From assembly GCA_963789265.1 (NCBI GenBank), contig CAWBKB010000007.1, positions 1-64,000 of the forward strand: 64,000 bases of DNA, written 5' to 3'. This document shows, in pieces, positions 8,198 to 57,660 of the stretch; the stretch's first letter is position 1; the number at the start of each line of letters is the position of its first letter. Under the pieces are notes generated by a model. That model did no database searches. It saw only the letters and a program-made list of their open reading frames with translations, and was not told where the DNA came from. A program made the position numbers and the translations under genes. The stretch is from an uncultured delta proteobacterium (GTDB lineage Bacteria; Desulfobacterota; Desulfomonilia; Desulfomonilales; Desulfomonilaceae).

Positions 8198-8492
8198 ACA
8201 GTATACTGCAATTTCGAGGATTGATTTTTTGAGGCGGCGCTATTGACGTTGCAGGGATGTGCAGGATCTTAATAATCGTTTCCTAATTAATGCGCGTGCG
8301 ACGTGCACAAATTGAATCCGGCCGAATTGGTACAGCAGCGGCAAAGAGCGAATCTTTAGTTTTGTGGTGCTGCCGCCTCGACTGCTTTTCTTTACATACC
8401 TCTTTTTCTGAGGTGACGCCAAGGATTGGAAGATGTCCTTGGCGTTTTTTTCTCCAAGAATTATGACTTAGAGAAAGGCTACTAGTCGCTTA

Positions 8493-8615
8493 GTACAGAT
8501 TTTGATAAATACGGTCGCGGATTTTCACCCTGGAGATTGCTTTCCCGCGTCTCGCGGTAAAGCAATCTTCTTCCGTACTGGCTCTTAACGTCACCGTGTT
8601 TGGGAAAGAGAGTAC
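8493..8615. mobile_element. MITE-like element with GTAC termini, copy 1
   Basis: Left end gtacagattttgataaatacggt, right end accgtgtttgggaaagagagtac (imperfect TIR), flanks tta/tca. Homologous to 14318-14478. Confidence 0.6.
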
Positions 8616-8973
8616 TCAGGTCGGGGGTGGCGAGAGATTGTTCTGGAGCACAGAGTTTCCTGGACAGTTCTACTCCTCGCGGATATAATTTAAACATTGG
8701 AGTAGTTTTGCAGGAGATTCGCTGCCCGGACTCGTGGGGGGCAAGATTAGTTGGGCGATTCGCTTATTTTTTGTCAATGATCTCAGATTGTTTACGCTTT
8801 ATCCTTAGCGGCAGCATTTAGGCGCTGGACATAATGCTTACCCTCCCGTTACCTTATCCATAAGGGGCTGGCGCCATGATAGGACCGGCCAAGACTAAAA
8901 CGCTGCACATCTCCATGGTTCGCTATCCACTCACCGGCCCCGATTTCTATGACCGCGGTTATAGGAGTGAAGC

Positions 8974-14296: not shown

Positions 14297-14317
14297 TGCG
14301 TTCGCTTTAGATTCTAA

Positions 14318-14478
14318 GTACAGGTTTTCATAAATGCGGTCGCGGATTTTCAAAGTGGAGATTGCTTCGTCGTTTCACTCCTCGCAATGACATTTCCACT
14401 ACCTGTCATTGCGAGCGTAGCGAAGCAATCTTCTTCCGTACCGGGTCATAACGCCACCGTATTTGCAAAAAGTAGTAC
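14318..14478. mobile_element. MITE-like element with GTAC termini, copy 2, containing a GTCATTGCGAG/GCAATC REP doublet
   Basis: TIRs gtacaggttttcataaatgcggt / accgtatttgcaaaaagtagtac; identical 3-bp flanks taa/taa. Confidence 0.65.
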
Positions 14479-14497
14479 TAAGGCATGGAGGACAGTT

Positions 14498-23223: not shown

Positions 23224-23434
23224 CGTAATCGTTCATTTGCGCGGGGGAATTGTCGAAGCCCTGTCATTGCGAGGAGCAAATAGTGGGACAGGCATCTTGC
23301 CTGTCTATTACGGATGACGGGCAGGATGCCCGTCCTACTGGCAATCTGAGCGGGGTTTAAAGGAAGGGATTGCTTTCCCGCGGGACGTGGGACTCGCAAT
23401 GACAATCTTTCACGCTCGTAATTGAATGATTACA
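23224..23434. mobile_element. Gene-less TIR mini-element (GIY-YIG element family) with nested REPs
   Basis: Left cgtaatcgttcatttgcg, right cgtaattgaatgattaca; flanks caagac/tgagac; interior gtcattgcgag...ctcgcaatgac. Confidence 0.6.
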
Positions 23435-26416: not shown

Positions 26417-27009
26417 GGGGTTTTGCTCGGACCTTTCTGAATACTTGTCTCAGTTGGCCTCACGAGACCCGCTGCCGGCAGGCCAGTTATAAGATTAGTC
26501 AAAAGAACCGCTCTCTGCCTTGTCCTAAGGATATCTTAATCATGCCTCCCGGTCAATCCGGGAGCATGCAGCGGCCTTACCTATTCCGGTGCACACCGAA
26601 AGATGCGTTTTGCAGCAGGAGGATCGCCGCACAAGTCGGGCTCCATGACTTCAAAGTGAGCAGGAGTGTATGTCCCGAAAAGAAAAGGCAAAAAAACAAG
26701 ACCCAACCCCAGCATCTCTTACCCGAAAATACTCATGCATTAATCTCGGATACGGCGGAACGACCGTACAGAATTTCGAGGACTCGGGATTAACTTTTGA
26801 ATTCATATACTTGAATGAATAAACTTGAGATTTTAACGTAATTCCTACTACTTGCTTCTAGTGCATCGACAGAAAGCTTTTGCTTGACGCGCGCGATGCG
26901 TGGAGATAACAAGGCGTCATGCCGCGTGTACGCAATAAAAAAGCAAAACCGCCATGCGATGCGCGGCGGCTCTGTGTACAGAAAATTCCTATTGTGGGAG
27001 GTAGCTATC

Positions 27010-27891
27010 GTGGCAAAAAAATCGGGATTTACCCCGCAGCCCCCGAAACAACTTTGTGAGCTGAAAGTGTCACAAGAGGAAGCAAGAACTGGTCTGCAAG
27101 ATCGGATTGAAGAAGGCATTGAACTGACAAAACGGCAAATCGCGTCGCTCCAGGAATTCGACGCTCTAGAGCACGATTACGAAAAATGGGATTCTTTTAA
27201 CACAGAACTATTGAAAAGACTGTTTACTTCAGACGAAATGGCGAACGAATACGCCTGGTGGGGTATGGTTGTACACCCTCGTGAACAGTCGTTAAGAGAA
27301 AAAGTTACCGACCTTTTCGCGAACATAAATGATAAAATCCACCGTCTGGATTCTATTATCGAGCGCCTCGAACTCATACCCGTGAATTCCAGCCTTAAAC
27401 ACCTTACGGTTTCGCGCAGGGATTTGAAGCTACAACAGCGTTCAAAGAGGGTTTTCGTCGTACATGGTCGCGACGAAGTCGCTAAGGCTAATCTTGAAGT
27501 CTTCTTGCAAGAAATTGGTCTTGAGCCGATCGTTCTTCATCGGCAAGCTGACGAAGGACTCACAATCATCGAAAAGTTCGAAAAGCACAGCGATGTAGGC
27601 TATGCGTTTATCCTCCTCACACCGGATGAGATTGCCTACTTGGCATCTGAAGAAGGCAAATCTGATGCTGAACGCCATAAGGAATTCCGTGCAAGGTCAA
27701 ATGTGATCTTTGAGTTTGGTTATTTTGTGGGCAAGCTCGGTCGTTCTAGTGTGTGCTGTTTGTATACAGGCAACGTAACCTTACCAAGCGATGTGAGTGG
27801 CATGATCTACAAGAAGTATGACAAGAACATCGGAGAGGTCGCTTACAATATAACCAAAGATCTCAAAGCTGCGGGATACGCTATTAGATAA
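27010..27891 (+). CDS. Predicted nucleotide-binding protein with TIR-like domain (CAP12/Pycsar TIR-like family)
   Basis: VFVVHGRD, EPIVLH, TIIEKFE, AFILLTPDE, RARSNVIFEFGYF and LPSD motifs; GGAGGT RBS before GTG 27010. Confidence 0.88.
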   Translation: MAKKSGFTPQPPKQLCELKVSQEEARTGLQDRIEEGIELTKRQIASLQEFDALEHDYEKWDSFNTELLKRLFTSDEMANEYAWWGMVVHPREQSLREKVTDLFANINDKIHRLDSIIERLELIPVNSSLKHLTVSRRDLKLQQRSKRVFVVHGRDEVAKANLEVFLQEIGLEPIVLHRQADEGLTIIEKFEKHSDVGYAFILLTPDEIAYLASEEGKSDAERHKEFRARSNVIFEFGYFVGKLGRSSVCCLYTGNVTLPSDVSGMIYKKYDKNIGEVAYNITKDLKAAGYAIR

Positions 27892-27962
27892 ACCTTATTC
27901 AAGGTAGATCAGAGCCAATTCACCTTCGCGTCATTGGTCCACTGCTCCACCTCACATGAAGT

Positions 27963-28121
<159 letters not shown>

Positions 28122-28251
28122 GGGATACCACACCCTTTTTACCCACTATGACCTGTTGATACTGAGACAGCCCTTCGTTAATCATTCTAAAGGGCTGTCT
28201 TTGTTTTGTCAAATACAGATTGATATAGAATGACACCGCTGTTAGCCCCCA

Positions 28252-28297
28252 ATATGGACACCTGTGGACACCTATATGGACACCTATATGGACACCT
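28252..28297. repeat. Four tandem TGGACACCT repeats, putative integrase arm-type sites
   Basis: atatggacacc tgtggacacc tatatggacacc tatatggacacc t, about 130 bp from the att core. Confidence 0.65.
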
Positions 28298-28363
28298 AAA
28301 GACTAACACAAAAAAGACGTGAGCCGAACTTTTTTGCAGTGTTGGGCGAATGGAATTCTGGAT

Positions 28364-29608
28364 TCATTTGCCTTTTTTTTCTGTCTTCCGAAGTAGATCG
28401 TGGGTCTTTAGAAATTCCTCCATTTCATGATGTCTGTTGAAGTTGGCCGCCCACTCTTCTTCCGGACCGACCGTCGCCCCATGATCTATCAGCACGGCTG
28501 CCATATTCAAGTCTCCTCTTGCTGCGGCCAAACTGAGAGGGGAACGGCCAAAAACCTTCGTAGATAAGAATTTGGTATCTGCACGCTCGTTAGGATCGGC
28601 ACCTTCTTCCAATAGGAACCGGGCAACCCCAATGTTTCCCGTGCTGCAAGCTAACCACAGTGGGGTCACAAGACCTCGCCCCCATTCCATGTTGAGGTCT
28701 ACTCCCTCGGATTTGAGTTCGCGCAGCTTCTCCAGGTCATTTCCTTTTATCGCTTTGGCTATGGCCAGAAGCCTTTGCTCCCTCTTTTCCCAAAGCGGAC
28801 GCACTGTTTCAAGATGCTTTGAAACGGAAAATGGACAAATGTCATCCCATTCTGATGGGGAATAGCGGCCTCCAGAAAAATCGGGGGAGACGGACGGTGC
28901 ATTATACAAGGATATTTTACCGCTCTGCGCCTCTTTTATAAGGAGGTGTATGAGAGCCGGAGAGAATAGTTGTTCTCGGAAAGGTTTGTCTTCAAAGCTG
29001 GGATGGAGTATTCTCGCACTCACACAGGCACAATAGATCTTCTTTGGATTCTCATTGCCTCTCATGACCGGTGTTGGTGTCCCTTCAGCTACTTCTATAA
29101 TGCGTATATCCTGGAATTGCACGGGACTCTCGAACTCTCTCATCAATTGCGTTATGATTTGGGAACTTAAGGGCGTTGTTTCAACTTGTGATTTCGATTG
29201 GCCAGAGAGATGGTTTGTCTTGCCCATTTCCTGGGGTTTAATCCCATCAGTTCCTCTCATAAAAACGAACAAGATTAGGACTGCCCCTATTGCACAGCCG
29301 AGAGCAGCAAAGGGATGCTTCCTCAGAACAGTCTTAACCCTGTCCAAAGCGGGAACCGCCGCCTTGTAGATTCTTCCTAGGGTTTCCTGGAAGACTTTTC
29401 GCCCACTTGAATGACTCCCCGCTTGTTTCTTCTGCTCATTAATTTCTTCGGCCTGCTTCCGCTTCAACAATCCCGCATCCACAAGCTTCTTGAAAAGGCT
29501 TTGCAGACCCTTTTCCGAAAGGTGGTACTTCTCCATCAGGCCGGCATTAGTCATGCCTGACTTGATGTCTACAAGGATTTCCTTTGCGTTGACGGTTTTC
29601 TTGTCCAT
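28364..29608 (-). CDS. Lineage-type N-terminal domain, TM helix and C-terminal ankyrin repeats
   Basis: MDKKTVNAKEILVDIKSGM...; TPLWLACSTGN...LLEEGADPN and SPLSLAAARGD...LIDHGA. Confidence 0.8.
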   Translation of the reverse strand: MDKKTVNAKEILVDIKSGMTNAGLMEKYHLSEKGLQSLFKKLVDAGLLKRKQAEEINEQKKQAGSHSSGRKVFQETLGRIYKAAVPALDRVKTVLRKHPFAALGCAIGAVLILFVFMRGTDGIKPQEMGKTNHLSGQSKSQVETTPLSSQIITQLMREFESPVQFQDIRIIEVAEGTPTPVMRGNENPKKIYCACVSARILHPSFEDKPFREQLFSPALIHLLIKEAQSGKISLYNAPSVSPDFSGGRYSPSEWDDICPFSVSKHLETVRPLWEKREQRLLAIAKAIKGNDLEKLRELKSEGVDLNMEWGRGLVTPLWLACSTGNIGVARFLLEEGADPNERADTKFLSTKVFGRSPLSLAAARGDLNMAAVLIDHGATVGPEEEWAANFNRHHEMEEFLKTHDLLRKTEKKGK

Positions 29609-29697
29609 AGGAGCCCCCTGTGGAGAGAGATCAGGAAGGCATGATATCATAGCGCATTGTCAAATGGGGGGAAATTCGGCATGTGCCAGTCTGAAAT

Positions 29698-30216
29698 TCA
29701 TCGCACCGTCCAGCCATAATGTTGAGAAACGTCGGCGCAATTGTGTAGATTACAGTGAGCACTCAAGTATCTTAGCCTTTGCTTAATGGCAGTAAGTAAG
29801 TAAGGTCTGATTGCTTTGAAACTCTTATGTCCTGTCGGAGGTCGGTCTTCTTCCAACAACAGGATGACTTTGATTGGGCGGCTATTTCGCACAAATAGAT
29901 AATCGCAGAATTTGGAAAGTTCCTGATTTCCCAATCTGTGAGCACCATATAGAACTGCCACAGTGTCTCTGATCTTTTTCCCTATTTCCAGAGCCAGTTC
30001 ATTTTGTGCCATTCGCTTTCTGTTTGCTATTCGATAGCCCCTGAAATCTTTTGCTTCGATTACGAACAACACCTCTCCGAGAGCCAATACATCTACGGCT
30101 TTGATGTCTTCGGGCTCAGCAAACTGTTTTCTATAAAAATTGCATTCGTCATACTTTTTGACATACCATCCATCAGGGAATTCAAACGTAAAGTTTTCCA
30201 CCTGTTTGCTGATCAT
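29698..30216 (-). CDS. Putative PD-(D/E)XK (REase-fold) nuclease
   Basis: KAVDVLAL...FVIEAKDF fits D-x(n)-ExK; coupled to the ATPase by an ATGA overlap. Confidence 0.6.
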   Translation of the reverse strand: MISKQVENFTFEFPDGWYVKKYDECNFYRKQFAEPEDIKAVDVLALGEVLFVIEAKDFRGYRIANRKRMAQNELALEIGKKIRDTVAVLYGAHRLGNQELSKFCDYLFVRNSRPIKVILLLEEDRPPTGHKSFKAIRPYLLTAIKQRLRYLSAHCNLHNCADVSQHYGWTVR

Positions 30217-31301
30217 TGCAGTCCTTCAAAGAAAACTGATTGCTCCCTGTCATCTTGTTTCAGAGTTTCATCCAATGACACAATTGTCTTGAGGTCTTCA
30301 AGAAGCTCACCCTCTTCCATTGCTACTCCATTTTCCTCCAAATGTAGGCCAAAGAATCGGGCAGGAATTTCCGTCCTGGTACGTTTGGATTCCTCCACTA
30401 TTAATGACAATTCTTTCATGACAAACAGACTGTGAGTTGCCAATATGACCTGAACTCCTCTATTCACTAATTCTGCCAAAGTTCGAGCGATTTTTCTTAC
30501 AATTTTCGGGTTAAGGTTGGCCTCGGGTTCATCCCAAAAAAGTATGCCTTTGTCGGTAAGGGACCCATTGGCAGCAAGATACGCCAACATAGCCACTTTT
30601 CGCAATCCTTCGGCAACCAAAGAAATCTCCATAATTCCTTGGCCGGGGAGATGCAAATAAAATCGCCCAGATTCCACCCTTACAGACCCTCCCATGATTT
30701 TTTCCAAGGGCTTGACGATTGCAGCTATTTCTCCAGCTCGTTTGCCCTTGAGCAAAGCGCGGTTTAAGAGCATGCAGAGATCATAGTAAGTTTCATCTAT
30801 AGCTAATTCACGCTCTTCATAAAGACTGATAAATCCGGGGTAAAGTGAAAGTACCTCCCGTGGGGGAAAAAATATAGGTATATCGGGTCGCCCCTTCCCC
30901 TTGTCTGGAAAATGTTCAAGAATTACATCCATCTGAGTATTTGAAGCAAAAGAAAAGCTCAACTCCCTGTCGTATCCAAAGTCTGCGTTAATTTCACTTC
31001 TTGCACGCCCCACTCCCCTACGGCACAAACGCCCCAAGGTATCAGGGTTAAACACTCCCACTAGTTTCTGTGCAATACGACGTTGAAACCACTTTTTACT
31101 AACTACAATCGTGTACTTACCCGATTCCTTATCGTATTCTCTCGACTTATGTAAAACGTGTGCCAGTGCATAGCCCAGCTTCAAAAGGTGACTTTTGCCG
31201 GTGGCATTCTCCCCGATAATCACATTTAATCCATCAGAAAACTTGATGTCTAAATCTGAGAAAGCCGTGAAGTTTTTAAGTCGTAACGCATCTAGAGACA
31301 C
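30213..31301 (-). CDS. ABC/SMC-like ATPase (AAA_15/AAA_21 type)
   Basis: LKNFTAF, GENATGKS, VAEGLRK, FWDEPEANLNP and ATHS motifs; GTG start at 31301 with a GGAG RBS. Confidence 0.9.
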   Translation of the reverse strand: MSLDALRLKNFTAFSDLDIKFSDGLNVIIGENATGKSHLLKLGYALAHVLHKSREYDKESGKYTIVVSKKWFQRRIAQKLVGVFNPDTLGRLCRRGVGRARSEINADFGYDRELSFSFASNTQMDVILEHFPDKGKGRPDIPIFFPPREVLSLYPGFISLYEERELAIDETYYDLCMLLNRALLKGKRAGEIAAIVKPLEKIMGGSVRVESGRFYLHLPGQGIMEISLVAEGLRKVAMLAYLAANGSLTDKGILFWDEPEANLNPKIVRKIARTLAELVNRGVQVILATHSLFVMKELSLIVEESKRTRTEIPARFFGLHLEENGVAMEEGELLEDLKTIVSLDETLKQDDREQSVFFEGLQ

Positions 31302-31441
31302 TTTGGTTCTCCAAAGCGGGATATCATTCATTGGATCAGTAGTCCATTGAATCTTCGATTGATTAGAGCACATGAAAGATGCCACGACAAGATTTTTCTC
31401 CGTAATTGAAGGCGAATACACCGGACATGAAACGGTCTTCC

Positions 31442-31594
31442 TCATTCCTTAAGCCCCATTACCATCGCATACAGCCTCAGCGCCCTTTCCAGGTGATAAG
31501 TGTTACTCCCCTTGAATTTATGAAATTCGTTCAGCAGATCGACTGGCAGGCGACCTGCGAATACTTTTATTTTGACCGTGGAATATTTTTTCAT
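31442..31594 (-). CDS. Small hypothetical protein, possibly a ribbon-helix-helix regulator
   Basis: KVFAGRLPVDLLNEF...HLERALRLY strand-helix-helix pattern; purine-rich RBS. Confidence 0.4.
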   Translation of the reverse strand: MKKYSTVKIKVFAGRLPVDLLNEFHKFKGSNTYHLERALRLYAMVMGLKE

Positions 31595-31913
31595 TCTTCC
31601 CCCGGTCCATTCTTTGTGATGCATTTCAATTGAGTCCAGTATTTTTCTGATTCCTAGCAAAATCTGCTTTTCAGACAGATCCGGTGCTTGACCGCTGTTA
31701 TCAGTGTGTGGAATTCCGGGGACACCATACTTAATTATTTTGTTCCGGAGAGTGCCTCCAATTTCGTCTTTCGAACCCCCTACCTCTCGGTCCTATCGAC
31801 AAACTCACGAGCCAGACCGTCTGATACCCGATTCCTCCAGAAGAATGATCACGAGTTCGTACGCGTCACTCTGCACAAAGTCTCTTTCTTCAGGCTCCTC
31901 GGACTCCATAAGG

Positions 31914-32048
31914 CCGCCACGACAAATTCTGGGGACACCATACTAATTTCTTCCAGGCTTCCGCTCTACGAAGCGGCTGTCCATAAGTAACAAAAGCCAC
32001 GAGAAATGCTCGTGGCTCGCGTTTTCTGGTGCGCCCGAACAGATTCGA
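31914..32048. repeat. 135-bp direct repeat, copy 2, including a 22-bp tRNA-Arg 3' fragment (32027-32048)
   Basis: Same sequence as 27963-28097. Confidence 0.9.
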
Positions 32049-32192
32049 GCCTTCGACATTGCGGAAAGCACTGATCTCTGGCCGCGGCATTTCAGTGTGC
32101 CTGCTCTTCGTGTCGATTGAAATTCTTTGAACCGATTCGGAAAAAGTGTGAAGGTTACGCAAGACGGCATCCTGTGTGCCGCGATCAATCAA
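32049..32192 (-). pseudogene. Truncated HepT/DUF86 (HEPN) toxin fragment
   Basis: TQDAVLRNLHTFSES...RHTEMPRPEISAFRNV, then runs into the tRNA fragment; the RX4H His is lost. Confidence 0.7.
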
Positions 32193-32245
32193 GAACGCAC
32201 GTGATTGAATTTGCCTTCAAGTTTGAAACGGTATAGAGTATTGCC

Positions 32246-32449
32246 ATGACTATTGCGGAACTCAAAGAGGCTATTGAGCAATTGAACGTCGAGGAGAGAG
32301 CCCAATTAGAAGCTCTCCTTCATCCCTGCAGCCCCGATGAATGGGATAAGCAGATGGAGGCGGATTTTTCCTCGACCGGAGACTTGGCTTGGCTGGTGAA
32401 AGAAGTAGATGAGGACATAAAAACCGGCAAACTGCAAGACATGCCTTGA
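32246..32449 (+). CDS. Putative antitoxin
   Basis: 67-aa acidic protein (IEQL...WDKQMEADF...GDL) overlapping the downstream toxin start. Confidence 0.7.
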   Translation: MTIAELKEAIEQLNVEERAQLEALLHPCSPDEWDKQMEADFSSTGDLAWLVKEVDEDIKTGKLQDMP

Positions 32450-32787
32450 AATCGAAGTGCCACCAACGATTCTGGGATTGTTTTCGCTCCTTCCCTCCTC
32501 ATATTCAAAAGCTTGTTAGGGCCAAATATGCTTTATGGGAAAAAGACCCTTTCCATCCGTCCTTTAAATTTCAAGAAATTCAACCTGGGATCTGGCGAAT
32601 ACGACTCGGCGATCACTATCGAGCCCTAGCCCGTCGAGAAGGCGATCTCATGGTCTGGTTTTGGATCGGCAATCACGAAGACTACAGTGAAGGCGGTGGC
32701 TTCGGCGGCATTTTCGCTCTGCCGGATGAAGCCCGCGGTCGCTGCTGCAAGAGGATCGGAGTCGGTATCGGCGTAGGATGCTGGTGA
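32446..32787 (+). CDS. ParE/RelE-like toxin (C-terminus apparently replaced)
   Basis: RFWDCF...DPFHPSFKF...YRALA...WFWIGNHEDY, followed by an atypical tail. Confidence 0.75.
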   Translation: MKSKCHQRFWDCFRSFPPHIQKLVRAKYALWEKDPFHPSFKFQEIQPGIWRIRLGDHYRALARREGDLMVWFWIGNHEDYSEGGGFGGIFALPDEARGRCCKRIGVGIGVGCW

Positions 32788-32881
32788 GCCCGCGTTCCGT
32801 GCGGGAGAACCGCATCAATAGAGAAAAAACCGCGAACGATGCGGTTCGTCCAGCGTGCCACGGGACTCACCAGCATCCTAC
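32772..32881. repeat. GTAG-type REP doublet (GTAGGATGC...CATCCTAC); second copy at 51051-51182
   Basis: cgtaggatgctggtga...accgcatc...gatgcggt...tcaccagcatcctac. Confidence 0.7.
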
Positions 32882-33030
32882 CGGCGCCTTTGCATCTTGT
32901 GCGGCGCCAGTACTCGGTTGTACTTACTGGGGTCTTCGCCTGAAGACGAGTTTTTTTCTCCCATTCCTCGATGGGGACAATAAATTGAGGCTGCGGAAGC
33001 ACTCGTAGGACGAGATAACCCCCTTGGCGT

Positions 33031-33288
33031 TCACTCGTCCAGATCCCTGAATTCAATCTCAAGTTCTTCTCGGTCCCAGGTGACGCCGGGGCTCCCGTAG
33101 TTCCGGCAATTGACCAGGAACGCTGCCCTGGACACCCCGGCGAGAGCGGCTGCGTGGCCGGAGGTTACCCGCCCCATTTCGAAGAGCTTCGTCGCAAGAG
33201 CTGTTCGGACTTCCGCCTCGAATAGGTCCGGGCTCATATTAAGCATAGCTTGGATGGATTCAGGATAATCTATGCACAGGGTTTTCAT
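33031..33288 (-). CDS. UPF0175-family predicted antitoxin (orphan)
   Basis: LATKLFEMGRVTSGHAAALAGVSRAAFL motif. Confidence 0.8.
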   Translation of the reverse strand: MKTLCIDYPESIQAMLNMSPDLFEAEVRTALATKLFEMGRVTSGHAAALAGVSRAAFLVNCRNYGSPGVTWDREELEIEFRDLDE

Positions 33289-33300
33289 GGTACGATTCTT

Positions 33301-33377
<77 letters not shown>

Positions 33378-33530: not shown

Positions 33531-33689
33531 ACTAATCATTCACTTACGGACGGGAAATTGTCATTGCGAGGAGCAAAGCGACGAAGCAATCTCGGTTCTA
33601 GGCGCTCTCCGGAAATGAGATTGCTTCGCTTCGCTCGCAATGACACCGGTTGGAACAGATCGCTGCCCCCGGATAACTGAAAGGATACG
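33531..33689. mobile_element. Gene-less TIR mini-element (GIY-YIG element family)
   Basis: Left actaatcattcacttacg, right taactgaaaggatacg; flanks gcttac/gcatac; interior gtcattgcgag...gcaatc / gattgc...ctcgcaatgac. Confidence 0.55.
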
Positions 33690-46571: not shown

Positions 46572-46672
46572 GAAAATGCCCAGCCGTCCGGATTGGTTCG
46601 AAAGAGATCTATTCGAACTGGAGCCATTTGCTCGTTTCCACGAAAAGTAGAGGGCTTACGAGCGGCGAAAGA

Positions 46673-46866
46673 TTGTCATTGCGAGCGCCTCGTCCCGCGA
46701 GACGAAGCAATCTCTTCCTCTGAACGCCGCTTAGATTGCCGGTGGAACGGGCATCTTGCCGGTCGTCCATAATAGACAGGCAGTCCCGCGAGGCATGGGA
46801 CTGTCCCACTATTCACTCCTCGCAATGACATGGACAGAAGGTCCCCACCGTAAGTAAATAGGCACA
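46673..46866. repeat. Composite REP cluster (GTCATTGCGAG family with nested ACAGGCA family); degenerate TIR at right
   Basis: gtcattgcgag...gcaatc, gattgcc[ggtggaacgggcatcttgcc...ctgtcccact]...ctcgcaatgac, cgtaagtaaatagg. Confidence 0.6.
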
Positions 46867-53354: not shown

Positions 53355-53650
53355 GGGCAGTCCCGCGATGCACGGGATTTTGTCTGCCCTATTCCGGGCA
53401 CCCACGAGGGGCGCCCCTACAGTGGATTCCCACGTACGCGGGAATGACGGCTGACCGGCAAGATGCCGGTCCCACTAAAGTAGGTTGGGCCATGCCCGAC
53501 TCAATATGCCGGCCACGGGCCGCCCTACCAAAACTTGATAAGAAATAGTGGGGCAGGCATCCTGCCTGCCTAAGTGACAGGCAGGATGCCTGTCCCACCG
53601 GGAATATCCCCAGGATTTGCCAGTGGGATGGGCATCCTGCCCGTCATTCT
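53351..53650. repeat. Mixed REP cluster between convergent genes
   Basis: GTAGGGGC...GCCCCTAC plus several GGCATCCTGCC/GGCAGGATGCC palindromes. Confidence 0.7.
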
Positions 53651-53704
53651 TCTATGAATTATTGGTGCCGCTTTCTTAACGGGACTAACATTCTGCAACG
53701 TTGG

Positions 53705-54743: not shown

Positions 54744-55523
54744 TCAGATAACCTTGGCCTCGTTACGGAGCGCCTGGACAACCAGCTTGGCGGCATCAGC
54801 AGGCTCCGTGCCTTCCAATTTCTTGCCGGCCTGCCGCTCCGGAGGCATGGTGTAATTCTTAGCCTGCAGCCTGGCTTCCACGTTGAGACCAAGATCCGCC
54901 GAAGTCTTTTTGTCAATAGGCTTCTTTTTTGCCTTCATGATTCCGGGCAGCGATGCGTACCGGGGCTCGTTAAGGCCTTTCTGGGATGTGAGCACGCAGG
55001 GCAATGGGACTTCTACTGTTTCTTTTCCGCCCTCCACGTCTCTTTCCACTGTGGCGGTCTTTTTGTCTTCCGAGACTTCGACCTTGGTCACCAAAGTGAC
55101 CTGTGGGAGCTGCAGAAATTCAGCAACCATTGCACCGGCCTCTCCGGAATCGTCGTCGATGGCGCGTTGGCCGCAGAAAATGACGTCATACTCGATCTGT
55201 TTCGCTGCGGCTGCCAACGCTTCGGCCATTACATAAGGATCGGCCTCGTTTAGGCGCTCGTCATTGATATGGAATGCCCGATCCGCGCCCATCGCCAGTG
55301 CAGTGCGAATCGCTTCAGTTGCACGATCCGGTCCGACGGTGAGTATCACCACTTCCCCTGCCTTGAATTTTTCTTTGAGCCTAAGGGCCTCTTCTACACT
55401 AAACTCGTCGTAAGGATTGATGATGTACTTTATTCCATCGGTCACAATGCCGGACCCGTCCGGTTTTACCTTAATCTGTGTTTCCGTGTCAGGGACTTGT
55501 TTTAGACACACCAGTGACTTCAC
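54744..55523 (-). CDS. etfB: Electron transfer flavoprotein beta subunit
   Basis: KQVPDT, NPYDE, ALAMGAD and NEPRYASL motifs. Confidence 0.95.
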   Translation of the reverse strand: MKSLVCLKQVPDTETQIKVKPDGSGIVTDGIKYIINPYDEFSVEEALRLKEKFKAGEVVILTVGPDRATEAIRTALAMGADRAFHINDERLNEADPYVMAEALAAAAKQIEYDVIFCGQRAIDDDSGEAGAMVAEFLQLPQVTLVTKVEVSEDKKTATVERDVEGGKETVEVPLPCVLTSQKGLNEPRYASLPGIMKAKKKPIDKKTSADLGLNVEARLQAKNYTMPPERQAGKKLEGTEPADAAKLVVQALRNEAKVI

Positions 55524-55726
55524 TGATAATCCTCCTTTCCATAATCGACTCTCATGAGTTCGCCGATAGTTTCTTTGGGCTGTGCAAGGACAATATGATC
55601 AGACTGAAAACGAACCGCTCCTGGACTTTGCTTCCCCCTGCAAAGGAGATGTCAAGCCAATTTCCAGGAGAATCGTCAAAGCTTACTGGGCGTTGACACA
55701 GGAGTCAAGGGAAAATTCTCGCAGTA

Positions 55727-56230
55727 CGTAGCATTCACTTAGCCACGGGAAATGATTGCCATTGCGAGCGAAGCGAAGCAATCTCACAGGCTTATAAAAA
55801 CGGTACTGGAGATTGCTTCGTCGCTTCGCTTCTGGTAATCCCATGAACATGCGTCGACAATACTACGTCTATATTCTCACCAATCGCAGTAACACGGTTC
55901 TGTACACCGGAGTGACCAGCGACCTCAAGAGACGCGTTTGGCAGCACCGAGAGAAGCTGGTGCCAGGCTTTACTGAGCGGTACAACGTTTACAAACTAGT
56001 GTTCCACGAGGTCACGGATGACGTGTACGTGGCCATTGCCCGGGAAAAACAGATAGAGGCGGTTTCTCGCCAGAAGAAAAACGATCTTATCGAAGCCACG
56101 AATCCCGAATGGCGAGATCTATACGAATACCTGTAGGAAATCACCCTGAGCGAGACAAGAGATTGCTTCGTCGCTTCGCTCCTCGCAATGACAAAGGGCG
56201 GAAGAGCCCCTACCTAAGTGAATCGGTACG
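55727..56230. mobile_element. 504-bp TIR/TSD-bounded mini-element carrying a GIY-YIG nuclease between REPs
   Basis: Left CGTAGCATTCACTTAG, right CTAAGTGAATCGGTACG, exact 6-bp direct repeat GCAGTA on both sides. Confidence 0.75.
55843..56136 (+). CDS. Stand-alone GIY-YIG nuclease (YhbQ/UPF0213-like)
   Basis: YYVYILTN...LYTGVTSDLKRRVWQH...AIAREKQI...NPEWRDL. Confidence 0.9.
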   Translation: MNMRRQYYVYILTNRSNTVLYTGVTSDLKRRVWQHREKLVPGFTERYNVYKLVFHEVTDDVYVAIAREKQIEAVSRQKKNDLIEATNPEWRDLYEYL

Positions 56231-56249
56231 GCAGTAACTGCAAAGCGAG

Positions 56250-57500
56250 TCAATGGAAAATCACGGATGCGAAGCTAACAAAGGAATTGTGCGCATCTAC
56301 GCGGGCGTAGTCCAGGGCCAGGCGACGCCCTTCAGATGCATCCATGCAATGAAGCATGGCCGTGATCGGAGAGAAGCCGCATATACGCCTGGAGTCATTC
56401 CCGCGAGCCACCTGCTCGATAAATCCCTTCATGTCTACCTTTTCGACGGATGAAAGTAGTTGTTCATCCTTTTCAAGGCACTCCGCGATGGTGCCCCGAT
56501 GCGGAATGAATGAATCACCGTAACGCGGGCCGATATGATCCAGATCGGCGCTGGCAATAAAACAGACGGATCGAGAACTTCGCCGACAAACGTCTTTCAG
56601 GGCAAGACAGAATTTGTCGGCTGCCTGTCTTTGGCTCAGGAAGCGGCCGTCATTACCAAAAAAGTGATGAGACAAAGAACATAGAATAGGAACAATCATG
56701 AATGGATGTCGCCCGCCGAAAAGAAATTGAAGGAAGATTGCCTGGAACTCTATCACGTGCTCGGTAGCGTGCAGGATCTCTTCGGACGCGGCATCCCGCC
56801 CTAACTCGGAAGATAGCTCGCTGAGAAGCTCTCTGTCTGTGGGCACTGTTCCGAGAGGTGTTTCGAAATCATGTGTGGTAGCGGTGAACAGTCCATCAAC
56901 CCCTCCGTGGCCGGTGCCCAGTATCACGTAAACATCCGATGGTTGGCCTGTTGCCAAAGCATGATAAGCCGCGGCAAAACACCGCCCGCCGGCCCGTATG
57001 TCGATGTGTGGCGCGATCAATCCCACAGGCCGCCGTTGATCTGAAAAGAATTCAGGCAGTCCCGGCCCACTGTCTCCTGTAAAGTAACCGGACAGTTCAT
57101 CTCGCAAGGTCTCAGGATCTGCACTGTAACTTGTTCCGGCATGTGATGCCGGTCTCGATGGCTTTCTGCGATACTCGGAGACTTTGTTTTCGAACGCTTG
57201 CCTGAACCGCGCGCCTTCGAGCAGGAACGCGTCATCTAGTCTTTCAAGAATACACTGCAAGTCGTCAAGAAAAACGATCCGCCCTTGTCTTCGACTGAGC
57301 TCGACCTGAATATCGCGAAGGGAGTGCCGTCCGTCAAACATAGCCACCACCGGAACGGCTTCCGTGCCAATGCACACCGTCTCCTCTCTGAGTTGGAGAG
57401 GATCTTTCAGCCCGATTACGGGTCTATCTTCCACAACCAAATGAATGATGTCCAGATTGCGAAGTTTCGGCTTGTACTCAGGATCGGTTGGATTGGTCAA
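56250..57500 (-). CDS. MEMO1-family protein (AmmeMemoRadiSam system protein B) with N-terminal extension
   Basis: HAGTSY, IAPHID, EHVIEFQ, ASADLDHIG and ICGFSPI motifs. Start uncertain; the longer ORF start lies in a REP. Confidence 0.85.
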   Translation of the reverse strand: MTNPTDPEYKPKLRNLDIIHLVVEDRPVIGLKDPLQLREETVCIGTEAVPVVAMFDGRHSLRDIQVELSRRQGRIVFLDDLQCILERLDDAFLLEGARFRQAFENKVSEYRRKPSRPASHAGTSYSADPETLRDELSGYFTGDSGPGLPEFFSDQRRPVGLIAPHIDIRAGGRCFAAAYHALATGQPSDVYVILGTGHGGVDGLFTATTHDFETPLGTVPTDRELLSELSSELGRDAASEEILHATEHVIEFQAIFLQFLFGGRHPFMIVPILCSLSHHFFGNDGRFLSQRQAADKFCLALKDVCRRSSRSVCFIASADLDHIGPRYGDSFIPHRGTIAECLEKDEQLLSSVEKVDMKGFIEQVARGNDSRRICGFSPITAMLHCMDASEGRRLALDYARVDAHNSFVSFASVIFH

Positions 57501-57660
57501 TTGTTGTACCTGGGAGATTATTGGTGGGACAGACGGGCAAGATGCCCGTACCCACTGCAAGATGCCCGTCGCCACTGCAAGATGACCACCCCACTAAACC
57601 TGGATGTGCATAAGTCGTGCACATGGGTATCCGTCGAGACTTTCGCAAACCAGGATAGAT

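Follow-up and report, generated by a model that had tools for sequence, protein, structure and literature searches.

Repetitive extragenic palindromes (REPs) are among the commonest non-coding repeats in bacteria. To our knowledge, only REPs of the GTAG class have a known partner enzyme, the HUH transposase RAYT, with which they form units called REPtrons. REPs of the CGTC-tagged superfamily are short palindromes that carry (C)GTC at one end and often occur as dimers, and the text of Di Nocera, De Gregorio and Rocco (2013, PMC3733652) reports them as 'not associated to transposase genes'; the same text notes that in some genomes REP dimers regularly lie within longer palindromes. Prokaryotic Slx1-like proteins of the GIY-YIG nuclease fold have no assigned substrate, and the text of PMC1564403 presents them as having a predicted repair role and mostly vertical descent. 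Here, we analyze a locus in a 64,000-nt stretch of contig CAWBKB010000007.1 from an uncultured member of the family Desulfomonilaceae (hereafter, the window), where a 97-aa GIY-YIG gene lies amid REPs within imperfect terminal inverted repeats (TIRs) of 16 and 17 nt (55721–56236). This locus is probably a composite of two nested repeat systems, namely, a REPtron-like core (55758–56192), in which a GIY-YIG gene stands in place of the HUH (RAYT) gene, inside a shell that resembles a miniature inverted-repeat transposable element (MITE). A preliminary description of this DNA had already proposed two layers, and the core of REP, gene and REP within a shell agrees with it.

We investigated the distribution of the gene and the REPs among other genomes. 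A contig scan with the window protein returned at least 506 relatives, and the best 80 loci, which were 55–71% identical, came from 20 named phyla and did not include the source genome, were analyzed. In 72 of the 80 loci, an exact REP 9-mer, GTCATTGCG or CGCAATGAC, was located no more than 150 nt from the gene. With respect to orientation, 41 loci had a REP(−) upstream, 59 had a REP(+) downstream, and 35 loci combined the two, the usual layout being REP(−), gene, REP(+). The density of the 9-mers was 8.13 per kb near the gene compared with 0.129 per kb beyond 1 kb and a random expectation of 0.0076 per kb; it dropped within approximately 500 nt on either side, and no 9-mer lay inside the gene. 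In the 30 loci with one REP per side, the REP-to-REP unit measured 350–475 bp, with no flanking duplication (the 8-nt flank match was near random) and no inverted repeat beyond the REP. The gene and the downstream repeat were often in close contact: of 76 intact open reading frames (ORFs), 33 had a REP(+) that started no more than 30 nt past the stop codon, and in 15 of these 33 the stop codon ran directly into GATTGC, overlapping the 3-nt REP foot, while in two more the foot began at the last base of the stop. In-frame stops were present in 4 of the 80 matches. None of the 80 loci had the TIR-bounded shell of the window near the gene (exact 15-mer of the shell motif, 0/80; its 9-mer in three loci, always at a distance from the gene), and therefore REP, gene and REP constitute the general unit. 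Calling the locus a transposase-less element with a passenger gene understates the role of the gene. The suspicion in the preliminary description that the nuclease is tied to its own REP family is strongly supported by these comparisons, both in the 72 of 80 loci and in all five distant relatives described below. At the level of sequence comparison, a conserved REP–gene–REP module across approximately 20 bacterial phyla is established.

The arrangement also held in more distant relatives. In all five examined (45–62% identity), which were matches of the plasmid search given below, the gene lies between inverted (C/T)GTCAT-tagged hairpins built on other stems: ATTCT/AGAAT and ATCCT/AGGAT in Planktothrix, a perfect 33-nt inverted pair in Rhizobium, and (C/T)GTCAT-tagged inverted hairpins in Azospirillum, Spirosoma and Aeromonas. 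The tag takes the form CGTC in the Azospirillum, Rhizobium and Aeromonas relatives and on a Methylosinus plasmid. In Azospirillum lipoferum 4B (NC_016623.1, 255000–256290), a block of approximately 526 bp comprising a REP dimer, the gene and a second REP dimer is located between sufB and sufC; its product is a 46%-identical relative of the window protein, and the same query matched nine places in NC_016623.1. In A. ramasamyi (flanks 98% identical), Azospirillum sp. B510 and A. brasilense, the sufB–sufC junction is approximately 526 bp shorter and the block is missing. Comparison of these genomes shows that, in this one genus, gain or loss involves the whole block at once. Plasmid NZ_CP023738.1 of the alphaproteobacterium Methylosinus trichosporium OB3b (99584–100815) matches the 34-nt REP of the window exactly over 32 nt, in a CGTC-tagged head-to-head dimer that lacks the gene and lies between two convergent genes; identity over 32 nt between such distant groups is remarkable. 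In tblastn searches, 33 of 72,556 plasmid records matched the gene, most of them very large replicons, as did 1 of 50,697 phage records, with no evident vehicle for the gene in these two collections. As a separate observation, a Planktothrix agardhii plasmid (NZ_LR882964.1, 17350–20613) carries the GIY-YIG gene together with arrays of its variant REPs in a defence island, between an MmeI-type restriction-modification gene and the DISARM gene drmA.

Read along the REP(−) strand, the repeat is YGTC-ATTGC-GA[variable stem-loop]GAA-GCAAT-CTC. Its tag is YGTC, and it does not belong to the GTAG type; in 407 copies, the base before GTC was T in 287, C in 81, A in 27 and G in 12. A regular expression demanding ATTGC and CGCAATGAC yielded 356 REPs, 273 of them unique, and a random 150 of the 215 unique REPs of 26–48 nt were aligned. 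The resulting structure is foot(3)-stem1(5)-TTC-stem2-TC-stem1'(5)-GAC. All seven pairs of the distal stem 2 changed on both sides among the 150 unique REPs, and compensatory cells numbered 170 compared with 71 ± 7.4 after shuffling, a value reached in 0 of 500 shuffles. The covariation score was 0.153, as against 0.059 in shuffled alignments and 0.02–0.07 in slid-partner controls. Hairpins framed as GAG-N5...rc(N5)-GAC numbered 113 and were found in 54 of 81 loci, compared with 0–4 in 20 shuffles, and 18 of these 113 used nine other basal stems (ATCGC, ATTCT, ATCCT, ATTCC, GTTGC, ACCCC, ATTAC, ATTGT and TTTGC). The motif GCTNCGC, which reads GCGNAGC on the other strand, occurred in 106 of the 273 unique REPs compared with 9 in shuffles; GCGNAGC forms an unusually stable DNA mini-hairpin. 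CTTCGG was present on the sense strand in 46 of the 273, and as RNA it gives the C(UUCG)G loop, which is stable. The strand hints are divided: the GCGNAGC enrichment and, in one lineage, G-T versus A-C pairing point to the REP(−) strand, whereas CTTCGG points to the other strand as RNA. Taken together, the covariation and the framed hairpins show selection on the hairpin, and the alignments show lineage-specific hairpin variants beside the corresponding genes. Five Anaerolineales loci (L067, L070, L072, L076 and L080) share the REP variant GTCGTTGCGAG / CTCGCAACGAC and likewise share an altered protein loop at residues 36–44 (KNGLGSAFV-like versus KEKLVxGFT). From these alignments, the loop and the REP variant are a possible specificity pair. 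As the five loci form one lineage, the joint change counts as a single event, and we did not retain co-evolution of loop and REP as evidence.

The window protein matches Pfam GIY-YIG (PF01541) over residues 6–79 (E = 5.6e-14; 52.6 bits, cut-off 22.6), and no NCBIfam family model matches it. Among 5,082 candidates of 53–170 aa, 5,077 were relatives at E ≤ 0.001, many of them on contigs of 0.5–2 kb; the family showed no extra domain within this length range, longer fused forms lying outside the search. In an alignment of 55 sequences, the mean column identity was 70% and 16 columns were invariant, among them Y21, G23, H35, E56, E68, K69, R76, K79 and N87, with Y10 and R31 conserved in at least 90%. 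The window copy keeps all invariant residues as well as Y10 and R31. Catalytic roles of the conserved Tyr, Arg and Glu are those we presume by analogy. The AlphaFold2 model (pLDDT 94.1) found its nearest solved fold in UPF0213 (1zg2, E = 8.7e-5), which was also the only PDB sequence match (E = 3.2e-4), followed by ten Slx1 chains (TMq 0.54–0.61) and, after them, 1ywl, UvrC and HIGLE; I-TevI ranked far down (E = 2.0). Homology and the predicted fold agree that the protein is Slx1-like/UPF0213-like, with its catalytic residues conserved.

Within the window, the element fills the intergenic space between the ETF-beta gene (etfB; 54744–55523, minus strand) and a Memo-family gene (56250–57575, minus strand), and the GCAGTA repeats, TIRs, REPs and gene that the preliminary description placed at 55721–56236 are all present in the sequence. 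A direct repeat, GCAGTA, flanks it at 55721–55726 and 56231–56236, as identified by sequence reading and the 8-nt flank test. The left TIR of the lineage-specific shell (CGTAGCATTCACTTAG, 16 nt, 55727–55742, plus strand; repeat search and end alignment) is separated from the first REP by a short spacer (CCACGGGAAATGATT, 15 nt, 55743–55757, plus strand; end alignment). The hairpin of this REP(−), GCCATTGCGAGCGAAGCGAAGCAATCTC (55758–55785, minus strand; sequence reading, motif search and covariation structure), is built on the basal stem ATTGC/GCAAT and contains two GCGAAGC motifs that overlap, and the GTC of its tag has mutated to GCC. After 23 nt follows a decayed but full-length REP(+) (55809–55842, plus strand; repeat search and sibling alignment), whose 3' half is degenerate, TCTGGTAATCCC in place of CCTCGCAATGAC, and which directly adjoins the start codon of the gene (55843–56136, plus strand, 97 aa, with an alternative ATG at 55849; Pfam PF01541). 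The gene ends 22 nt before the intact REP(+), GAGATTGCTTCGTCGCTTCGCTCCTCGCAATGAC (56159–56192, plus strand; motif search), and a long spacer (AAAGGGCGGAAGAGCCCCTAC, 21 nt, 56193–56213, plus strand; end alignment) leads to the right TIR (CTAAGTGAATCGGTACG, 17 nt, 56214–56230, minus strand; repeat search). The two TIR arms have in common a perfect inverted 10-mer, ATTCACTTAG, and a terminal CGTA, with one 1-nt indel and mismatches between them; the inverted-repeat search pairs them over 17 nt at 82%. The REP copies at 55809–55842 and 56159–56192 form a direct repeat 350 nt apart (31 nt at 90%). A 22-nt direct repeat (55809, 56159) had raised the reading of a gene cassette inserted into a REP(+), which we dropped because the sibling alignment shows the upstream copy to be a full-length REP with a decayed 3' half. 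Only a tRNA reached the Rfam gathering score over the window, and two miRNA-hairpin matches in 55650–56300 (E ≤ 1), far under threshold, were dismissed as chance. REP DNA can also be read as protein by ORF callers: a TTG-start ORF at 55813 (55813–55842 region) begins MLRRFASGNP, and the relative P0002 has an N-terminal extension, ...RLLRRFTPRSE...; in each case the peptide comes from a REP that precedes the true start.

The REP family is dispersed in the window: CTCGCAATGAC (at most one mismatch) has 12 matches compared with 1.48 expected, and the 64 kb hold six REP-family loci and one gene, a count that includes the site at 8533, which is merely a related palindrome. Of the further REP sites named in the preliminary description, those at 14358, 23263, 33560 and 46676 stand, and the one at 8533 (GAGATTGC...GCAATCT) turned out to be an incomplete REP. 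At three of them, a search for other TIR-bounded copies, which the preliminary description had called for, recovered gene-less siblings of the shell. One of them is shell D (33532–33688, plus strand; motif search and end alignment), in which TIR, REP(−), 23 nt, REP(+) and TIR follow one another and which aligns end to end with the gene-bearing shell A (55727–56230, 502 bp between its ends) minus the gene segment. Shell C (23225–23433, plus strand; motif search and end alignment) has other small repeats nested in a REP loop, and shell B (~46644–46865, plus strand; end alignment) has a degenerate left TIR, of which only CTTA is kept, and the right TIR TAAGTAAATAGGCAC. The eight ends of the four elements align from terminus through spacer to GTCATTGCGAG, with the TIR family consensus GTAATCATTCACTTA. 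Each shell has one short and one long spacer: spacers resembling CCACGGGAAATGATT were found by end alignment at 33547–33559, 23404–23418 (minus strand) and 46659–46674, and a long spacer of the AAAGGGCGGAAGAGCCCCTAC type lies at the opposite end of every sibling. The four copies in 64 kb contain a single ORF, the GIY-YIG gene.

Flanking duplications support insertion of these shells. In an 8-nt register, the flanks of shell A are CGCAGTAC (55720–55727) and, on the right, GGCAGTAA, agreeing at 6 of 8 positions, with the exact GCAGTA on either side as a perfect 6-nt core. A duplication had been reported as strictly 6 bp; the duplication itself stands, and the 8-nt register fits better. The flanks of shell D (GGCTTACA / GGCATACA) agree at 7 of 8 positions and those of shell C (TCAAGACC / ATGAGACC) at 5 of 8. 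With ends fixed by the end alignment and shell B left out because of its degenerate end, the matches of A, C and D sum to 18 of 24, which was reached in 0 of 200,000 random window placements (mean 6.1, maximum 16) and, when ends were free to shift by 2 nt, in 5 of 20,000. As the three duplicated sequences differ from one another, they were made at insertion, with no shared target. The exact arm 10-mer occurs only at the two ends of shell A, and its sole 1-mismatch match in 64 kb (33538) lies beside a REP; by count alone the 10-mer is at chance level (at most one mismatch, 3 seen versus 3.03 expected, with 59 of 100 shuffles reaching 3), and all three matches adjoin REPs. The 15-nt consensus TAAGTGAATGATTAC (at most three mismatches) has 5 matches compared with 1.08 expected and 0 of 100 shuffles reaching that number; four lie beside REPs, and the fifth, with three mismatches, is inside an ORF. 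At the other REP sites, the shell motif stands 13–29 nt outside the REPs.

On these grounds, the outer shell is, by its alignments, a lineage-specific MITE-like element with a target duplication of approximately 8 bp, and the MITE-like shell proposed in the preliminary description is upheld by the three gene-less TIR-bounded copies and the significant flank duplications. It is best read as a MITE holding a REP dimer, presumably moved by an enzyme encoded outside the window. Neither a DDE transposase nor an insertion sequence with matching ends was found among the 53 window ORFs; mobilization in trans by a DDE enzyme, as had been suggested, is kept here as a surmise. The gene-less siblings are the same shell, in which the 350-bp gene segment was either lost between the direct REP(+) copies or never gained.

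We propose that the nuclease would recognize its own REP, folded as a hairpin or cruciform, by the conserved foot and tag and would nick or cut there. Host repair, or recombination between REP copies, would then maintain and spread both the REPs and the REP–gene–REP block, and spread by repair would leave no target duplication. Because the canonical units have no target duplication, we favor a structure-specific cut at the foot of the hairpin, with subsequent repair or recombination between REP copies; nuclease binding, the cleavage site, the strand and the route of spread are all steps that we infer. In a wider form, which we offer tentatively and would not yet back over its denial, mini Slx1-like GIY-YIG nucleases would be the missing partner enzymes of YGTC/CGTC-tagged repeats, that is, a second, HUH-independent REP–nuclease partnership in approximately twenty phyla. 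Each lineage would recognize its own hairpin foot and copy REPs and block without target duplication, and local MITEs would carry the module further. The gene–REP pairing makes the missing-partner gap testable: protein and DNA substrate are both defined, and stems that vary in nature can serve as specificity controls. If true, the proposal would give a function to a large unannotated group of 'GIY-YIG nuclease family protein' entries, more than 5,000 clusters here, and it may account for metagenome assemblies that break at these genes and for spurious repeat-encoded ORFs.

Other explanations can be weighed against this composite of a REPtron-like core in a MITE-like shell, and those that make the gene a passenger, the hairpins transcript elements or the nuclease a host guardian are not negligible. 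A MITE moved by a DDE transposase could by chance have picked up a GIY-YIG gene and REPs with no functional tie, which would fit the inverted ends, flanking duplications and gene-less siblings of the shell and the departure of the local gene from its family at two conserved columns. Chance capture is nevertheless insufficient because the pairing recurs across about 20 phyla without the shell (72 of 80 loci) and, in five of five distant relatives, with hairpins of other sequence; a search of the 53 window ORFs gave no transposase either, and we consider this account very unlikely. A related doubt concerns the shell itself: the outer 'TIRs' might not be transposon ends but a palindromic target or extra motifs like those of bacterial interspersed mosaic elements, with GCAGTA a coincidence. 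The text of PMC3733652 does describe longer palindromes that regularly enclose REP dimers and never occur without REPs, and the shell motif lies beside REPs in four of five cases, the fifth being the 3-mismatch match in an ORF. Yet the three shells have differing duplicated flanks (6, 5 and 7 of 8) that random placement did not match in 200,000 trials and matched in 5 of 20,000 with a 2-nt shift; since these flanking repeats differ between shells, they point to insertion rather than a fixed target, and this reading is the least credible of those considered.

Two further accounts take the hairpins or the nuclease as ordinary cell components. If the hairpins stabilized, terminated or regulated mRNA, the nuclease would be a housekeeping repair enzyme and the other copies would serve other genes alike. 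The placement of REP(+) at or within 30 nt past the stop in 33 of 76 intact ORFs and the C(UUCG)G loop encoded in 46 of 273 unique REPs are what such elements would look like, and available text credits REPs generally with mRNA stabilization (PMC12306157) and classes prokaryotic Slx1-like proteins as DNA repair proteins (PMC1564403). This is hard to reconcile with REP dimers and arrays that lack the gene and lie in either orientation in intergenic DNA and on plasmids, a 32-nt REP identical between distant classes when the proteins share only 55–71% identity, a block gained or lost as a unit within the suf operon, the enrichment of antisense GCGNAGC (106 of 273 REPs versus 9 shuffled), and the lack of T-run terminators in 55500–56300; we regard it as quite unlikely. 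The nuclease might instead be a host guardian, a resolvase that clears REP hairpins or cruciforms at replication forks and is kept where repeats abound, while another process spreads the repeats. A guardian would not need to be bracketed by repeats with its stop codon inside one, nor should its gain and loss coincide with theirs in one block, and the in-frame stops (4 of 80) and altered motifs suggest selfish-gene turnover. In its favor are the predicted fold, which most resembles that of Slx1, a nuclease specific for branched DNA structures, the very strong conservation of the protein, and the Cyanobacteria, which form one group on the tree (one change, support 79), as some vertical descent would predict. 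We judge this explanation unlikely, albeit worth keeping in mind.

Several observations count against the composite reading that we prefer. The gene–REP association leaves its direction open, in that the nuclease could spread, resolve or simply co-travel with the repeats. The window copy departs from its family at two columns conserved in at least 90% (K72E and G74V), which is within the family range, as 12 of 55 sequences have two such departures; in a second copy, 83% identical and probably on the same contig, the GIY motif carries Y10N, and T22M and T25S are also present. These substitutions suggest that the local gene copies may be decaying. REP copies occur on plasmids without a nearby gene, and the exact 9-mer is missing in 8 of the 80 loci, some of which have variant REPs. 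The 80 loci were themselves the best matches among at least 506, the covariation alignment sampled 150 of 215 unique REPs, and the invariance of basal stem 1 in that alignment is by construction, given the regular-expression selection. At the Azospirillum locus, the junctions have diverged and are not clean, so insertion and deletion are indistinguishable and the ends unreadable. A tree of 77 rows gave 36 phylum changes (minimum 19, shuffled mean 49), but 6 of its 74 branches were well supported; with such poor resolution, the phylum mixing is weak evidence for transfer, and we set the tree aside as a transfer test. No transposase (DDE, Y1 or other) and no insertion sequence with matching ends was found among the 53 window ORFs (E ≤ 1e-5 for Y1). 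The promoter scan found none inside the element upstream of the gene and only two sites, at 55501–55530 by the etfB start, and the terminator scan of 55500–56300 found no terminator-like site and no T-run terminator.

The window contains other repeats and genes of note. A tail-to-tail REP dimer of the GIY-YIG-associated family lies inside a different repeat shell at 14358–14432 (plus strand; motif search). This shell belongs to a second MITE-like repeat of approximately 130–170 bp (8490–8616 and 14313–14484) with AGTAC...GTACT ends and shared arms. One copy has a simple palindrome, GAGATTGCTTT...AAAGCAATCT, at its center, and the other has the REP dimer there. Other small GC-rich palindromic repeats, of the GGCAGGATGCCCGTC or GACAGGCATCTTGCCTGTC type, are nested in the REP loops of shells C and B (23275–23345 and 46730–46810) and also lie in the spacers on both sides of the etfAB-Memo block (53389–53700 and 57440–57650); they translate to recurring peptide-like strings in six-frame listings. 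A tRNA gene (33304–33377, minus strand; Rfam RF00005, 70.5 bits) is located approximately 150 nt from the gene-less shell D. A defence-like cluster at 26884–33062 includes a CAP12/Pycsar-type TIR-domain protein (26884–27888), an ankyrin-repeat protein, an AAA_21/AAA_15-type AAA ATPase (30216–31445) and a ParE-like toxin domain (32446–32784).

In comparison with known systems, the shell has the properties of a MITE: TIRs, flanking duplications, a size of 157–502 bp, several intergenic copies and no transposase of its own. It differs in that its inverted ends run approximately 45–55 nt into REPs and in that one copy holds a nuclease gene. A MITE shell around a REP dimer may be an instance of the embedding described in the text of PMC3733652. 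The window REP family may belong to the CGTC superfamily, but its GTC is preceded by C in 81 and by T in 287 of 407 copies; three REP strings and 'GIY' were not found in the text and four supplementary files of PMC3733652, the consensus figures being outside this search. A full-text literature search returned no report linking GIY-YIG genes with REPs, subscription journals not being covered, so an earlier report is possible; 'GIY' is likewise absent from the accessible text of PMC12306157 and PMC6006769.

With the stand-alone UPF0213/Slx1-like proteins (PDB 1zg2 and 1ywl), the window protein has in common a minimal GIY-YIG domain of approximately 95 aa without accessory domains. The Slx1 group lacks the C-terminal Asn according to the text of PMC1564403, which in its available part mentions no repeat association of Slx1-like proteins, whereas N87 is invariant in the window family. 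GIY-YIG homing endonucleases, such as I-TevI and the free-standing phage enzymes, have the catalytic fold in common with the window family, and the logic proposed here, in which a cut site is copied by repair, would by analogy be alike. Homing enzymes carry DNA-binding domains and are located in introns or phage genomes. The window family, by contrast, is nearly absent from phages (1 of 50,697 records), and I-TevI is a distant match to its predicted fold (E = 2.0).

The closest counterpart is the REPtron, in which, as described in the text of PMC3733652, one small nuclease gene is likewise bracketed by inverted REPs. As in REPtrons, the window REPs are also dispersed as intergenic monomers and dimers, and they combine a conserved tag and foot with a variable distal stem and lineage variants. 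The two systems differ in enzyme and tag: REPtrons use an HUH/Y1 enzyme and GTAG, whereas the window family has a GIY-YIG enzyme (PF01541), with no Y1 among the 53 window ORFs, and YGTC. We know of no GIY-YIG enzyme that forms an HUH-style covalent DNA intermediate, and therefore the chemistry of any movement must differ from that of REPtrons. If the proposed partnership is real, this would be a repeat family sustained by a nuclease without covalent-intermediate chemistry.

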